From assembly GCF_963921235.1 (NCBI RefSeq), contig NC_086097.1, positions 118,856,001 through 118,920,000 of the forward strand: DNA of 64,000 nt, read 5' to 3'. This stretch comes from Mobula hypostoma (Eukaryota). The notes below the pieces were generated by a model. It saw nothing but the letters and a program-made list of their open reading frames with translations. It was not told the origin of the DNA and did no database searches. The translations under genes were made by a program, and so were the position numbers. Positions 5,757-50,769 of this stretch are shown piece after piece. Position 1 is the stretch's first letter. Each line of letters begins with the position of its first letter.

Positions 5757-6810
5757 TCAGGTGATATCTCTAGACCAGTTGGTCTGCTGACAGAACTCTC
5801 TGCTCCACTTCTTATTCTGGGAACAGTGGAGGATGATACCCAAATTTGCATTCAAAAGCAAACAAATGCTGCAATGTGTTGTGCGCTTTTTGTAATCGAT
5901 CCTTACCACAAACAAATGGTTGGATCCCTCCAACCAGTGCCTCCACTTCTCCAGTGCCAGTCTCAGTAGAAGAAACATGTCTTGAATAGAAGGCACAGAA
6001 GTGCAGTTTGTGGTCTGTGGCAGGTCGTTAGGACAAGATGGTCCCAACACCCATGTCTGATGTGTTGACCTGCACCACAAAAGGTAAGTCCAAGTCTGGT
6101 GGAGCTAGAATAGATGACGGACATGAACTTTTGTTTTAACTCCACAAAAGCCTTCTAAGCTTCCAGAGACCAGATGAAGGGCCTAGTAGATTTGGTGAGC
6201 GGTGCTGCCATTGAACTGGAACTGTGGATGAACCACCTGTAAATATTGGCAAAGCCTAGAAACTGCTGGAGTTGTTTCAGGGAGGTGGATTGCAGCAAAT
6301 TCTGCACGTCCTGGGTCTTATTGGGGTCCATTTGTAGGTTGCCATTTGATACTACAAACACAAGGAAGGAGACTGTGGATTTCGCTCTTCTCCAGTTTGA
6401 CGAATAATTGATTCTCAAGAAGCCATTGTAAAATTTATTGGAAGTGCTGGATGTGTTTGTGAATGGACTGGGAGAAAATGAGTATATCATCTAGGTAGAC
6501 AAAGACAAAATGGTGTAGCATCTCCTGGAGCTCATCATTGATGTAGGCTTGAAATACCGCTGGAGTGTTGCCAACCTGAAAGGCACATCCCAGTACTTGT
6601 AGTGGCCCATAGCCCATAGGTGTGCTAAATGCCAGTTTCCATTTGTCTCCCTCATGAATGCAAATTAGGTTGTAGGTGCAACAGAGGTCCAATTTGGTAA
6701 ATGTTGGGCCTTGCAGTATCTCAAAGGCTGTATTCATGAGAGAGAGGGTACACTTTTTAACAATGATCTTAGTTACCCCCCTATAGTCTATGATGTGCCT
6801 TGGTCCACCA
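5757..6810 (-). pseudogene. pol: Ty3/Gypsy LTR-retrotransposon pol remnant (RT-RNase H)
   Basis: ORF pieces read IDYRGV, FTKLDL, DKWKLAFST, VFVYLDDILIFS, LQQFLGFANIYRWFI and ALEKWRHWLEG, with frameshifts. Confidence 0.9.
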
Positions 6811-6991
6811 TCTTTCTGCAGATGTTGAAAATCCAGAACAACACACACAAAGTGCTGGAGGAACTCAGCAGGATACGTAGCGTCGATGGAGAGGATAAAC
6901 AGTTGATGTTCGCGCTGAAGCCCTTCATGAGGAATGCAAAGGAAGGGAGGATAAGAGGTGGGGAGAGAGGAAAGAATACAAGTTGGAAGGT

Positions 6992-7848
6992 AGCATCTCT
7001 AGGAAGATGTACAGTTGATGTTTCAGGCCGAGACCCTAAAAAAATGGTGAAAATAAAGCGGTGTGGGCCAGGGAACTTAAAATCATCGAAAAGTTTAAGA
7101 GCATGAGAAGGGTCACGAACATAGGTCGGAAGGGATTGAACAAGGGGGGATAAAACCGTGTCGAGGTATGCAGAAACGAGTTCGGTGGGGCAGGAGCAAG
7201 CTGAGACAATAGGTCTGCCAGGACAGGCAGGTTTGTGGATCTTGGGTAGGAGGTAGAAACGGGAAGTGCGGGGTGTGGGAACTATAAGGTTGGTAGCAGT
7301 GGATGGGAGATCCCCTGAGCGGATAAAGTCGATAATGGTGTGGGAGACAATGGCCTGGTGCTCCTTAGTGGGGTTACGATCGAGGGGTAAATAAGAGGAG
7401 GTATCCGCAAGTTGTCGCTGTGCCTCAGCAAGGTAGAGGTCAGTACGCCAGACTACAACAGCACCCCCCCCCTTATCGGCTGGTTTAATAATAAGGTTAG
7501 GATTAGTGCGGAGGGAGTGGTTAACAGAACGTTCCGAAGGAGTGAGGTTGGAATGGGTTAAAAAAAATGGTGAAAATAAAGCGGTGGGGGTCAGGGAACT
7601 TAAAATCATCGAAAAGTTTAAGAGCGTGAGAAGAGTCTTAAAAAAATGGTGAAAATAAAGTGGTGGGGGCCAGTTAAAAAAAATGGTGAAAATAAAGCAG
7701 TGGGGGCCAGACGAAGGTCCTGACGAAGGGTCTCGGCCTGAAATGTTGACTGTACCTCTTCCTCGAGATGCTGCTTGGCCTGCTGCATTCACCAGCAACT
7801 TTGATGTGTGTTGCTTGAATTTCCAGCATCTGCAGAATTCCTGTTGTT
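6992..7848. mobile_element. Rearranged PLE insertion: inverted pLTR arms, RT N-terminal coding segment and four re-start copies
   Basis: 15-bp TSD tacaagttggaaggt at 6977-6991 and 7849-7863. The minus-strand peptide IIKPADKG...FYLLPKIHKPACPGRPIVS...PTYVRD is PLE RT N-terminal sequence (about 7045-7557). 6992-7037 is the inverse of 7727-7772. Confidence 0.9.
7717..7750 (+). ncRNA. Minimal type-I hammerhead ribozyme motif (CpG-decayed stem III)
   Basis: gtc-CTGACGA-agggtctcggcct-GAAA-tgtt-gac. Confidence 0.7.
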
Positions 7849-8827
7849 TACAAGTTGGAAGGTGATAGGTCAAACCAGAAGAAGGGGAGAGTATGTGGTT
7901 GGGTGAGGGGGATAAAGTGAGAAGCAAAGAAATGATAGGTAGAAGAGGTAAAGGTCTGAAGAAGAAGGAATTTGACAGAAAGGACAGCGGACCATGGGAG
8001 AAAGGGGAGGAGGAGCACCAGATGCAGATAATCAACGGACAAGAAACAGAGAAGTAATAAGAGGGCAGCCAGAATGGGCAATGGAAAAAGTGAAGTGGGG
8101 GGGACAAGGCCATTTCTGTAAGTTAGAGAAATTGATGTTCATGCCATCAGGTTGGAGGATATCCAGATGGATTATGAGGTGTTGCTCCTCCAACATGAGA
8201 GTGGTCTCATCATGACTATAGAGGAGACTATGGATTGACATGTTGTAATAGGAATGGGAAGTCGAATTAAAATGAGTGGCCACAGGGAAATCTTACCTTC
8301 TGTGGTGGAGAAACCTAGGTGCTCTGCAAAGAAGTCCTCCGATCTACATTGGGTCAATTATTATTAAATTCAATTCTGCTTGCTACCCTTAAGGAGGATG
8401 TGTGAGATTCAGAGGTGTTGCAGGGAACCACTAGAGTGGTTCCAGAGATAAGGATTTTTACTGCACGTTAGGCAGGAGAAGATGGAAATATTTCCCCTGG
8501 AGGGAAAAGAAGAAGAAATTGAAAGAAGTGTACAGGATCTTGAGAAGTTTGGACAATGGGAAATAGAGAGAAACTGTTTTCAGCACTGATGGATAAAGGC
8601 TCAAGGGATGTATAATATATTTGTAGTGAAGGGGCAAGATCTGTAGGCGATATGAACATTTTTTTGTTAATGCAGAGTTTTAGATTTGGGATTCAAATTT
8701 CTAGGGGTGGGTCTTGAATGTTTAAAGACAAGAGAAACATTGATTCCATTGTCATTGGAAAATGACAGTATGTGGACTGATTGAGAGGGCTGGCATGATT
8801 GATTCTATGTGCCTTAGACTGTATGAC

Positions 8828-17182: not shown

Positions 17183-17260
17183 AGAAATATCATATAAGTG
17201 TCATACATCAAAGTTGCTGGTGAACGCAGCAGGCCAAGCAGCATCTATAGGAAGAGGCGC

Positions 17261-17296
17261 AGTCGACGTTTCAGGCCGAGACCCTTCGTCAGGACT
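17261..17296 (-). ncRNA. Minimal type-I hammerhead ribozyme (intact motif)
   Basis: Minus strand AGUC-CUGACGA-AGGGUCUCGGCCU-GAAA-CGUC^GACU: stem I AGUC/GACU, conserved core, stem II, palindromic ACGU stem III and GUC cleavage triplet. Confidence 0.85.
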
Positions 17297-17578
17297 AACT
17301 GAAGGAAGAGTGAGTAAGGGATTTGAAAGCTGGAGGGGGAGGGGGAGATGCAAAATGATAGGAGAAGACAGGAGGGGGAGGGATAGAGCCGAGAGCTGGA
17401 CAGGTGATAGGCAAAAGGGGATACGAGAGGATCATGGGACAGGAGGCCTAGGGAGAAAGACGGGGGGGGGGTGACCCAGAGGATGGGCAAGAGGTATATT
17501 CAGAGGGACAGAGGGAGAAAAAAGAGAGTGAGAGAAAGAATGTGTGCATAAAAAGGGGGTACGAGGGGGAGGTGGGGC

Positions 17579-18060
17579 CTAGCGGAAGTTAGAGAAGTCA
17601 ATGTTCATGCCATCAGGTTGGAGGCTACCCAGACGGAATATAAGGTGTTGTTCCTCCAACCTGAGTGTGGCTTCATCTTTACAGTAGAGGAGGCCGTGGA
17701 TAGACATGTCAGAATGGGAATGGGATGTGGAATTAAAATGTGTGGCCACTGGGAGATCCTGCTTTCTCTGGCAGACAGAGCGTAGATGTTCAGCAAAGCG
17801 GTCTCCCTGTCTGCGTCGGGTCTCACCAATATATAAAAGGCCACATCGGGAGCACCGGACGCAGTATATCACTCCAGTCGACTCACAGGTGAAGTGATGC
17901 CTCACCTGGAAGGACTGTTTGGGGCCCTGAATGGTGATAAGGGAGGAAGTGTAAGGGCATGTGTAGCACTTGTTCCGCTTACACGGATAAGTGCCAGGAG
18001 GGAGATCAGTGGGGAGGGATGGGGGGGACGAATGGACAAGGGAGTTGTGTAGGGAGCGAT
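17579..18060 (-). pseudogene. PLE GIY-YIG endonuclease domain (C-terminal part of the PLE ORF)
   Basis: VIY..YIG motif with CCHH zinc ligands. The 5' end is truncated and there is no native start. Confidence 0.9.
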
Positions 18061-18949
18061 ATGTCTTCCAAATGGGCAAAGCTATATAAATGTAGAGAGC
18101 TGTTCAAATTTATTAGGAATGAGATAAGTATCAAGAAACCTGAAAGAAACAAAGGGCAAACCAGAATCCAATCCTCCAGCTTTGGTTTCTGTGATAGATG
18201 ATTTGTTTGTCTGCAAATCGGGGGAATATTTTTTAAGTTTATATGAATTGTACCTGTGTTTTGGAAATCCTTAATCCTTTGTGTTTGATAAACGCTTTGT
18301 GCGCTATGCTTTATGTTTAAGAAATGCCTTAAGTTTAGGAAATGGTTTGTGGTTTAGAAATGGTTTGTAATTTGACAATGTTTTATTAGTTAGAAGTCTT
18401 CTGGGAGAATTTGGAAAGTTTAAGATAGAAATCGTCTGAGTCTTAAATGTGGCTTAAGAATTCATGGATTTAGACACGTATCACTATAGATAAATGAACT
18501 GTATTTTAAACTACTTTGTAAGCTGGAAGTATCTTCTCCTCAATCGGAAAAAGACACCCACGGCTCGAAAAGTTGGTATTGGCAGCTAAACTCGCCGTGT
18601 AGAATTAAAAGAGCAATGAACTAGGCTTTGACGATTGGGTAGTTATAATATAACCTCCCTTTAGTGAAAGTATTCATGGCAATTTATCTCTAATAGGGCT
18701 TAAAGTCTTTACTTAAGTTTAGAACTTCACTGTCTGCAAACCGAATACCACCACAAACTGAGACTAACTTTCTGATTGAATTTTTATCAATCAACCAATT
18801 AACAAAGGCAAAACTTCCCAAGAAAATTAAATAGTACCTTAAACATTGCCGATTCATTCAGTCTGTTGCTCCTGAATTTTTTGGTTTTAACTCTCAGTTT
18901 GATCTTTTGGGCTGGAATTTATATTGAACAGTGAACAACTTCAAAACGT

Positions 18950-37909: not shown

Positions 37910-38117
37910 AACACACACAAAACGCTGGAAGAACTCAGAACTCAGCAGGCCAGGCAGCATCTATGGAAAAGAGTAAACAGTCAATGTTTCGGGCCAAGTC
38001 CCCGTCATCAGGACTATTTACACTTTTCCATAGACACTGCTTGGCCTATTGAGTTCCTCTAGCATTTTAGGTGTGTTGCTTGGATTTCCAGCATGTGCAA
38101 ATTTTCTCTTGTCTGTG
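37910..38117. mobile_element. Fold-back PLE mini-element with hammerhead
   Basis: Inverted pLTR arms; minus-strand agtcCTGATGAcggggacttggcccGAAAcattgact (37979-38015); TSD actgta(t)gcaata at 37897-37909 / 38118-38129. Confidence 0.85.
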
Positions 38118-45524: not shown

Positions 45525-46701
45525 TGTCATGGTCCGGTCTGTGAAGTCCGCATTCTAGTTCATGGTCCGGTCCATGGACGCAGGACTCCGGGTCTTCCAG
45601 GTGTCCCTTGTTTGACTAAATCAAAGGCACCTGATTTCCATCTCTGGGCTTGCAATATAAGTAGCCTTGGGATTGAGTGTGGGCTGCTGGTTTGTCTTGT
45701 CAGTCCCTGTTGGAGTAAGCTGCTGATGAAACCATTTGTGATCTCTAGGCTTGGTTGGAGGACCACTGCTTCATGGAACCTTGTTGCCACTTGTTGGAGT
45801 AGTCTTTGTGGTCTGGATTTGGCTGTTTCCTGGGCCAGCTGAGTGGCTGCCAGCCACTCTGAGCTCGGTAGAGATCTGGCTGTTTCTGTAGCCAGCTGAG
45901 TTTGCTGCTGAACTGAGACTTGGAGCTACACTGGAGCAGAGATGGAACTGTCTGTTGTTCTTTGGTGTTTGTCTCTTCTTGTCCTTGCCTCTGTGAGGTA
46001 AATCAGGCTGTCTTTTCTGTTGCCCTGTGGGGGGTCATATCTTGTCTTGTCTTTGCCTCTGTAAGTCTGGCTGTCCTGCTGTTACCCAACAGGTGGACAT
46101 GTCCGACCTTGGTGTGGAGATGAAGTTGAGTCCCAGCTTGTTGTAGGATTAATTCTGGCTCTATGTCTATATTCTGTCCTGTCTCATGTTAGTGTTGTGT
46201 TAAAGATGAGTCCTGGCTTGTTGAAGGATAAGTCCTGGCTCTATGTTGATGTTCAGTTCTCAGTCTGTCTCTCAGCTCCAGCCTCTGAGTTACCAGCCTC
46301 CACATTTCAAGATGAAGATCCCGCAAGCAAGCTCCAAGACCCCCAGCCTCGAGGATCCTGCAGTCAAGCTCCAAGACCCCCAGCCTCAAGGATCCCGCAG
46401 GCAAGCTCAAGACCCAAGACCCCAGCCGGCAGCCAAGTCATGTCCTTGCCTGGTTCTGTGGTCCGAGCCCGAGGCAAGACCTAGTTTCTGGGTCCTTGTC
46501 CAGTCTCGGGCTCGGAGTCCAAGCCTTGTCTCCTAGTCCATGGTTCCTAGTCCTGGTCCCGCTTTCCCTAGCCCAAGTCTACGCTCTTGTCCCTGCTCCT
46601 TGCCTGAATCCTGTCATGTCTTTACTCTAGTCAAGTCCTGATCCTTGTACTTCAGTATCTGTGTCTTGCATTTGGGTCTGTTCCTAGCACCCCATGTGAC
46701 A
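45525..46701 (+). mobile_element. Solo LTR (Gypsy-type), 1177 bp
   Basis: TGTCA...TGACA termini; 5-bp TSD tgaag at 45520-45524 and 46702-46706; TATA-like aatataag at about 45654. Confidence 0.9.
46310..46430 (+). repeat. About 35-bp minisatellite inside the solo LTR
   Basis: gatcccgcaagcaagctccaagacccccagcctc(g/a)ag repeated about 3 times. Confidence 0.8.
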
Positions 46702-48285: not shown

Positions 48286-48882
48286 CTGAATATTTTGCTC
48301 GATGATAAACTTATCATGGTGCACAGACATGATAGTTCTGTTTTAGTCTTGCTTCGGCAAACTGGAACATCTAATAGTCAAGTGCTGATCATTCTAAATG
48401 TTAAGGGAGCTTTTTGTCATCATCCTGGTACATTCTACCCCTGGCCAACATCAGGGTCGCACAGGAGGAGCTGAGTACAATGATACTAGTCACATGACAG
48501 CGCACACTGATGTGACCCTGATTATTGTAAGCCAGCTGGAAGAAAACCTCTGACAAATTACCACCAACAGGTCACCTGTGGAAGCAGAGGCAGCAAAACA
48601 CTGGATCACTGTTACACCACTATCAAGAATGGCTACCATGCCATCCCACACCTGCACTTTGGCAAGTCTGGTCACTAAGCTGTACTTCTACTCCTGGCGT
48701 ACAGGCGGAGACCGAGGACCACAGCACCAGTGGTGAGGACCATGAAGTTATCTTCGAGGGAAGCAGAAGACTACTTTGAATTGCTGGACTGGACCAAGAT
48801 CAGATTTATTTATTAATCACAGCTACATCAAAATGTATTGTGAAATGATCATTTTAGCTAAAAACCGACAAAATCTGAGCAT

Positions 48883-49358
48883 CACACATCAAAGTTGCTG
48901 GTGAACGCAGCAGGCCAGGCAGCATATCTAGGAAGAGGTACAGTCAACGTTTCAGGCCGAGACCCTTCGTCAGGACTAACTGAAGAAACAGCTAGTAAGG
49001 GATTTAAAAGGGGGAGTGGGAGATCCAAAATGATAGGAGAAGACAGGAGGGAGAGGAATGGAGCCAAGAGCTGTACAGATGATTGGCAAAAGGGGTATGA
49101 GAGGATCATGGGACAGGAGGCCCAGGGAGAAGGAAGAGGGTGAGGGGGGGGAAGCCCAGAGGATGGGCAAGGGGTATAGTCAGAGGGACAGAGGGAGAAA
49201 AAGGAGAGTGAGAGAAAGAATGTATGTATATAAATAACCGATGGGGTACGAGGGGGAGATGGGGCATTAGCGGAAGTTAGAGAAGTCAATGTTCATGCCA
49301 TCAGGTTGGAGGCTACCCAGACGGAATATAAGGTGTTGTTCCTCCAACCTGAGTGTGA
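48883..49358 (-). mobile_element. Short PLE insertion (GIY-YIG C-terminus + pLTR)
   Basis: TLRLEEQHLIFRLGSLQPDGMNIDFSNFR*; 8-bp TSD ctgagcat at 48875-48882 / 49359-49366; close to 17202-17670. Confidence 0.92.
48942..48977 (-). ncRNA. Minimal type-I hammerhead ribozyme (intact motif)
   Basis: AGUC-CUGACGA-AGGGUCUCGGCCU-GAAA-CGUU^GACU. Confidence 0.82.
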
Positions 49359-50769
49359 CTGAGCATGTGTTGCTGGGGCAGCCTGCCAGTGTTGCCCCAC
49401 ATTCTGACATCAAAATAGCATGTCCATATTCAGCAGAACCACATGCTGCCAGCATCCAACTAACAACAACAACAGCAAAAAAAAATATCCTTTCCCAGTG
49501 CACGAACCACATACAGAGACAGGCCTCCAACATCACTACAGGCCACTGCACAACAGCCTCAAGAACATGGCCTCCGACCTCCGGAGTCACCAACTTAGGG
49601 GTTTCAACTTTCGGGCTTTGACCTCCAGACAAACCGAACTCTGGGCTTCAAGGGCTGGACTCACTAATTACAGGCCTCTGACCTCAGGACCTGACAACTG
49701 ACCTTTGACATCCAATCCTGGCAGACTCGCTGAAAATGGACCTCTAACCCCAGGACTCACAAACATCAGACCTTGGACTGACCTTAGGGATCACTGGCCT
49801 CTGACCTCACAGAGCTGTGACCTGTATTCCGACCTATGGTTCCTTCCCCTAATTCTTCATTTGCTGCCCTGACCTCTCACTCTACTTATCCCCATCTCTA
49901 CCCCTATCATGACACCTAGCTTTCTATACTGTACCCAAAAGCCATCCCTATAGACCTAGAACACTTAAAGAACCTAAAAGCTGTACTTGGAAATTCATTT
50001 TCAGATCTGAATGGATATGCCACAGTTGTTAACAACTTCACCAAGACCTATGTGGATGAGTGTATGCCTTCGAGATTATTCCATATATACCCGAAACTGA
50101 AGCTAAGGACAAGCCAGGAGTTTCACAGTCTGCTGAGGCCTGTTGTGTCCAAGAGTGGTGATCCAGAATTTTTGAAGAAGTCCATGTTCAACCTATGAAA
50201 AGTCAATGTAAGAGTGAAAAGGAATTCTATGTGAAGTTAAAGACAGAACCTGGATGCATGACAGATGTGGCTGTATTTGCATGTCATTACTTCCTTCGAG
50301 GCAAATTCTAACAGTATTAATGTCTGTGATGTTTCACTCCCTAATGAGCTCAATGCATTTTGTGTTTGCCTTGAAAGGGAGAATTAATCTACACCTGTGT
50401 TAATCCCCACAGCATCTGTCGACCTTGTAATCTCAATCTTGGAGGCCGACATCAGAACATCCTTTAAGAGAGTGAACCCTTGCAAGGCATCAGTCCCTGA
50501 TGGTGGGCCTGGCAGGGGACGAAACCTTGCATGCAAACTGAAAGGTATGATTATTTCTGATGACTCCTTATGTGTCAACATTAACTGGACTTTAAAGAGC
50601 CACCTGGTACAGCTTCCTTCAAGCTAGGAAGATAGCACGCTAGATTGTTGCATTTTCTCTTTTTAGTGAGATGTTCTGCCAACAATTACTAAGGTTTTCA
50701 CTCAATCTTCTCCTCATCAGTGCAATCACTGGCGGGTCTCCACAACCAGATGAAATGATGTGGCCATGT

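Follow-up and report, generated by a model that had tools for sequence, protein, structure and literature searches.

Architecture of the insertion

The insertion occupies positions 6992–7848 of the window, the whole 64-kb stretch of Mobula hypostoma DNA that was analysed. It consists, in this order, of an inverted 46-nt pLTR piece, four segments of Penelope reverse transcriptase (RT) coding sequence (S1 to S4), a 6-nt filler and a sense pLTR arm. The two target-site duplication (TSD) copies on the plus strand (6977–6991 and 7849–7863) are identical at 15/15 positions, and the exact 15-mer is found at these two places only in the window, in agreement with the proposal of the first-pass annotation that a single 15-bp TSD encloses the whole structure. 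The structure belongs to the inverted-pLTR type of Penelope insertion that is already known. It sits in an older 3' fragment of a Penelope element (6814–8355, minus strand), within the 3' UTR; this fragment carries an endonuclease tail, 3' UTR and pLTR and is 78% identical to a copy at 17202–18075. The older fragment adjoins an LTR-retrotransposon RT remnant (6438–6809; RVT_1, E 1.9e-10), Gypsy-like by its motifs. The region 5757–8355 thus shows three levels of nesting, with the insertion inside a Penelope 3' fragment that itself abuts the LTR-retrotransposon remnant.

Four of 24 sequencing runs were compared, all as contigs, including X1, X2, X5 (organism B) and the RNA-like run X10; X1 and X2 are one sample, possibly the source of the assembly. 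Flank contigs covering 7828–7960 are identical in X1 and X2. Run X5 covers both flanks, and no empty-site joint occurs among the best 15 of 274 joints. The empty site was also rebuilt and aligned to two older paralogues; this alignment was gappy and did not establish a single TSD copy. Length variants at 6908 in the left flank, with one T inserted (X1, X2, X5) or two (X5), suggest alleles or an orthologous flank in organism B.

The left arm (6992–7037, minus strand) runs from hammerhead stem II to just beyond the cut site and is 87% identical over its 46 nt to 7727–7772 in the right arm, as expected for the antisense pLTR piece that had been recognized there. Its outer end coincides with the ends of neither the right arm nor the window paralogues, and lies 39 nt inside the end position of one of the latter. 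The stretch 6988–7037 aligns to 48917–48966, and the TSD end matches the pLTR continuation of one paralogue at 3 of 4 nt. The pLTR itself carries TT immediately past the left-arm end. The right arm (7717–7848, plus strand) extends from hammerhead stem I through a tail of about 37 nt, and reaches 33–38 nt beyond the ends of two window paralogues. A sense pLTR starting at the hammerhead had been reported to follow the segments directly; the sense pLTR is indeed present, but the filler intervenes and the arm begins within stem I, about 30 nt ahead of the inferred cut site. A hammerhead-like core is visible in the right arm at 7720–7726 and 7740–7743, decayed at CpG sites, and its motif is intact in the 17-kb paralogue. 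Rfam gave no hammerhead match at the gathering score; the motif is read as a putative pLTR hammerhead from its visible core and from work cited in PMC8557442.

The copies at 17202–18075 and 48878–49360 carry this pLTR downstream of the end of the endonuclease ORF (residues 761–840 of protein P0010 match 17753–17998). Both are young 5'-truncated copies of the same Penelope family that end at the short, untailed pLTR end, and the former is inserted in a LINE-like 3' region. At 37910–38112 there is an older, small head-to-head pLTR pair, 73–78% identical to the right arm, which turns near the hammerhead head. A direct join of the left to the right arm (7037 to 7717) recurs in 17 contigs of X1 and 18 of X2, indicating that the simple fold-back form, lacking RT pieces, exists elsewhere.

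The RT segments and their junctions

All four segments read as RT on the minus strand. S1 (7037–7557) consists of a T1A7 head followed by 513 nt of RT coding sequence, S2 (7558–7637) of T2A8 and the first 70 nt of the same sequence, S3 (7638–7673) of T2A7 and the first 27 nt, and S4 (7674–7710) of T2A8 and 27 nt that share both extent and stop with S3. Every body is thus a prefix of the longest. Including their heads the segments measure 521, 80, 36 and 37 nt, and the four starts previously placed at about 7037, 7558, 7638 and 7674 are confirmed. The start motif occurs 4 times in the window, whereas 100 shuffles gave no match. The exact reuse of one junction and the start shared across bodies of 513, 70, 27 and 27 nt also support the earlier view that copying restarted repeatedly at one fixed end.

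The minus-strand translation of S1 comprises 171 RT residues, 155 of which (91%) are identical in the M. hypostoma protein P0001. It ends in FIFT, where P0001 goes on with MDVQS; the segments are therefore broken directly before the motif A Met-Asp, just ahead of the Asp, as had been noted. A strict M-D-[IV] pattern occupies this position in 81 of 120 homologues, and many of the 39 that it missed carry near variants. RVT_1 is present in the homologues, along with a weak GIY-YIG match that falls under the curated cut-off; the 171-residue piece of S1 by itself gave no Pfam match.

Two local features of S1 were recorded. At 7464–7472 a run of C's exceeds that of many family contigs by 3 nt (31–39 contigs in X1, X2 and X5 are without those 3 nt), which adds one in-frame Gly to the DKGG motif. 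At 7521–7524 three substitutions within 4 nt convert the family letters to TTAA, the letters that open S2 to S4. This could possibly be an aborted fifth restart that returned in register, a weak reading because chance alone would produce about 0.13 such clusters at 4% divergence.

The segment stops end in GGG, GTC and CAG whereas the starts read TTA, with no repeat between stop and start. None of the restarts into S2, S3 and S4 has microhomology with the RT continuation; for the S1 end this was judged from the P0001 protein only. The S2 stop is the sole position among 504 possible S1 stops with an 8-nt match to the pLTR head, a match counted on S1 letters (S2 has one mismatch) and found after the fact. 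At the final junction, the S4 stop shows an imperfect match to the pLTR head and is followed by the filler (7711–7716, plus strand), a templated 6-nt repeat of part of the hammerhead head (7723–7728) that corresponds to a small slip at closure.

Family abundance and sequencing support

In total, 66,927 X1 contigs fit a 1081-nt stretch, which indicates that the family is very abundant; depth in this comparison is not a copy number. Among the best 24 of 2067 loose-end rows, five rows of loose ends before 7044 and 7567 (13–36 contigs each, agreement 0.76–0.98) show the normal continuation into motif A, and none shows a second copy of the restart junction. The T6-7 plus A/AA is thus foreign to the family, while the first A and T (in the sense orientation) are templated. 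The first-pass annotation had considered the entire U7-8(A/AA) tract to be foreign to RT coding sequence, and had proposed its comparison with the family. This comparison upholds the idea for T6-7 and the A/AA, since family contigs read on into motif A, but not for the first A and T of the tract, which are family letters at the start of the Met codon.

The same data bear on the idea that a donor locus already held the RT fragment beside T6-7AA. In such a case the tract would be genomic, and the template would be a transcript of that locus, either in sense or in antisense with its 5' end fixed, or else a cDNA flap that had been cleaved and carried an A-rich primer. The size of the family leaves much room for a donor of this kind, insertions into older copies occur, as here, and T6 followed by AA is found 14 times in the window, 3 of them at the insertion; in addition, antisense templates have been proposed for PLEs in passages of PMC3846280, and flap capture is described in passages of PMC11702581. 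On the other hand, no copy continues past the AA into a donor flank, the loose ends at 7044 and 7567 show the normal family continuation, and repeated restarts would still be required, so that the proposal overlaps with the mechanism that we favour below. We consider a donor locus unlikely.

Sequencing support for the array itself is partial. Among the matches listed no contig runs through the entire stretch, and none covers the S1/S2 or the S2/S3 border; the lack of a spanning contig, and the possibility that X1/X2 is the very sample that was assembled, are what could be said for an assembly artefact. However, the copies differ from each other at 2–4 sites, and an X1 contig of 96 nt (7644–7739) is identical to the window at a depth of 13.4 versus 14 for the flank contig, which is single-copy-like. 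This contig reaches 30 nt to the left of the S3/S4 border and 29 nt to the right of the S4/filler border, 1–2 nt short of our 31-nt bridging rule at the two borders. An artefactual origin of S1 to S4 thus appears extremely improbable. The RNA-like run X10 bears neither way, with no contigs over 7657–7693 and no loose end at the break among the matches listed. A pattern scan of one metagenome yielded no matches.

Timing of the array

Within the 27 nt shared by all segments, each of the four carries one private change and none is held in common; two of these changes are CpG decays. The copies were therefore made before decay. Over the 70 nt that they share, S1 and S2 disagree at 4 sites. At position 7111 the family has T in 680,118 of 680,169 X1 depth units (more than 99.9% of the depth in X1, X2 and X5, among the best 40 of 106 variant rows), but G stands in S1 and A at the corresponding site of S2. 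The simplest reading, one variant template followed by one later transition, fits a single template lineage at this single site.

Could later tandem duplications and deletions have built the array from an ordinary insertion? Short duplications do arise in the window by other routes, as six other tandem units in 2–3 copies with lengths of 26–66 nt show, and S3 and S4 have identical ends. Yet the unit repeated in S3 and S4 runs precisely from junction to junction, which holds for 1 of 72,982 possible units of 10–100 nt, so that the unit ends coincide with the chimeric junctions. Moreover, plain duplication puts the short copy first, whereas the observed long-to-short order would take duplication plus deletion twice, and the four copies lack common derived changes. 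On these grounds of order, private changes and exact junction reuse, later tandem duplication, which the first-pass annotation had named, together with a truncated donor copy, as a refutation of its interpretation, is judged very unlikely. We therefore place the origin of the array at or close to integration. The annotation's claim of one integration event is likewise sustained by the single TSD around all parts, the long-to-short order and the private mutations.

Two further explanations were rejected. Nested independent insertions do not account for segments that are without pLTR ends and for which no internal TSDs are listed. A plus-strand poly(A) signal lies 14 nt before the S3/S4 stop, but the A-tract opens each segment and none follows S4. 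Elsewhere in the window, 2.7 tandem copies of a 37-nt unit lie in overlapping open frames at 46317–46415; the period is that of S3/S4 and the sequence is unrelated.

Origin of the T6-7/AA tip

The tip was likely made once, since it would be surprising if four RNAs tailed independently had the same break and the same tail. Two sources are possible, and for each we would put the chance below even and at the same level: the tip may be an RNA tail, or it may consist of untemplated A's added after the pLTR's own TT and then re-copied from DNA. Origin from a donor locus or an antisense template is unlikely.

Both of the former have precedents. Truncated L1 RNAs bear oligo-U tails in 10–25% of non-poly(A) cases (passages of PMC6191937), and for the R2 RT untemplated addition consists mainly of A's, from a minimum of 3 up to 7 (passages of PMC8857657). 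In its most explicit form, the RNA-tail reading would have the Penelope RT catch one of its own RNAs, broken and U-tailed, and read the same molecule four times, with the weak rU:dA end fraying and re-engaging while earlier cDNA was displaced over ever shorter distances of 513, 70, 27 and 27 nt. A frayed rU:dA end would account for both the re-engagement and the shrinking lengths, and would leave the AA after the U's unexplained. We hold this full scenario to be somewhat doubtful.

Alternatively, the RT may have made S1 only, using the pLTR TT, untemplated A's and a jump to an RNA end, after which a Pol theta-like or second-strand polymerase would have re-copied the junction from DNA several times while joining the arms, making an RNA tail unnecessary. 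Several features speak for such host repair: the TT that follows the left-arm end in the pLTR, the A's added by R2 RT in the range just cited, the S2 stop as the best pLTR-head match of 504 positions, the templated filler at the closing junction and the recurrent direct join of the arms. Multiple rounds of synthesis and realignment have also been proposed for Pol theta, in passages of PMC2895639. Nevertheless, S1 has a single T where the other segments have two, and a later loss of T in S1 would be required. The restarts occurred without microhomology and ignored a TTAA that sits 5 nt past the S3/S4 stop, while at the other two of the three stops the match to the pLTR head is no better than background (3 nt). 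A hairpin pairing the left-arm end with the S2 stop, which could have explained the fixed block, is not the predicted fold (z 0.10), and the Pol theta runs in the cited passages are of 3–8 nt, not 36–80. Host repair as the source of S2 to S4 is therefore rather unlikely.

Proposed mechanism and significance

In the reading that we favour, and consider probable, there was one integration in which synthesis likely broke off and began again three further times at one unchanging template end, probably through RT jumps from end to end, before the arms were joined. Starting from what is read directly, namely the anatomy, the family sequence at the break and the private mutations, we infer the following course. 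The endonuclease would cut both strands, 15 bp apart. The bottom strand would copy the pLTR, beginning at the usual tailed start and ending at the edge of the hammerhead, to yield the right arm, while the top strand would copy 46 nt of pLTR and jump to a broken sense template that ended just before motif A. The T6-7/AA tip would be made once and then re-copied, with the growing strand coming back after 513, 70 and 27 nt. Annealing would be attempted at the right-arm head, through the 8-nt match at the S2 stop and then through the imperfect match and 6-nt slip at the S4 stop, and the gap would then be closed.

The lack of microhomology at the restarts suits an RT clamping on a free end, and homology seems to have guided the closing steps. 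For the R2 and L1 RTs, template jumping accompanied by untemplated addition has been demonstrated (passages of PMC8857657 and PMC10830420), and purified anole PLE protein starts without primer homology and extends both strands (PMC11167929); template jumping by a PLE RT was not found in the literature examined. According to passages of Pimentel et al., jumping is possibly unneeded in vivo and L1 chimeras are attributed to RNA ligation. Passages of PMC13174262 list switching, ligation and twin priming for L1 chimeras and contain no occurrence of 'uridyl'. It also weighs against the favoured mechanism that the array is a single locus while the family is very abundant, and that the sequence does not reveal in which direction synthesis ran; on the bottom strand the segments would share a stop and lengthen, so that uridylation could not apply.

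PLE RTs and telomerase have a common ancestry. The four-restart junction constrains models of how PLE insertions are completed, in that a return of synthesis to a fixed end can precede the joining of the arms and needs no homology. Should the tip be an RNA tail, a third class of retroelements would be subject to uridylation, and a U-tail, which is a priming block for L1, could serve a jumping RT as a landing site. If the reiteration on a U-tail is true as well, the locus would preserve in the genome a fossil trace of two processes, the uridylation of PLE RNA and reiterative copying by the retroelements most closely related to telomerase. No description of four restarts or of PLE uridylation was found in the titles and abstracts searched. 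A single event in a family of very many copies is a lead and not proof of a pathway; the structure is real, odd and informative on the finishing of PLE insertions, and its most striking reading is unproven.

Comparison with known systems

We compared the locus with five systems, in each case as described in passages of the papers cited. It resembles the inverted-pLTR insertions of Pen2a_Av (PMC3846280; scheme in PMC8557442) in its single TSD, its outward-facing inverted pLTRs and the 30–40-nt tail on one arm, and also in 5' truncation and captured internal DNA, for which template jumps have been invoked. It differs from those insertions and from the scheme in the four nested RT copies with the same end, in the foreign T6-7AA tip and in a left arm that ends inside the pLTR.

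With the uridylation of LINE-1 mRNA by TUT4/7 (PMC6191937) it shares the possibility that truncated retroelement RNAs bear oligo-U tails. There, however, uridylation was shown on RNA and blocks priming, and the tail classes were U, AU, A and none, not U then A, whereas here the tract is known from DNA alone.

Pol theta iterative templated insertions (PMC2895639) likewise contain repeated pieces templated nearby and short fillers at a joined break, but here the units are of 36–521 nt and the restarts took place without microhomology, which is seen only at the closing junction and the S2 stop.

As in concatemer synthesis by telomerase or DRT2 (PMC12039810), one template region was repeatedly copied into tandem DNA, with S3 and S4 as equal units. 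Unlike these systems, the array has three different stop points and no dedicated template RNA, and is a single accident rather than a programmed product. The label "telomerase-like" given earlier does not hold: there is no alignment region, as the differing stops and the TTA starts make plain, and the boundaries are not fixed, two of the four bodies being equal.

The closest parallel in process is template jumping by R2 and LINE-1 (PMC8857657, PMC10830420) together with multi-template L1 insertions (PMC11702581), which share homology-free cDNA concatemers, added A's and extra cDNA between opposed arms. Those RTs belong to another class, and in their in vivo examples the joined pieces are distinct or do not overlap, in contrast to four restarts at a single end; the array at 7037–7710 is a one-off variant of known template jumping.
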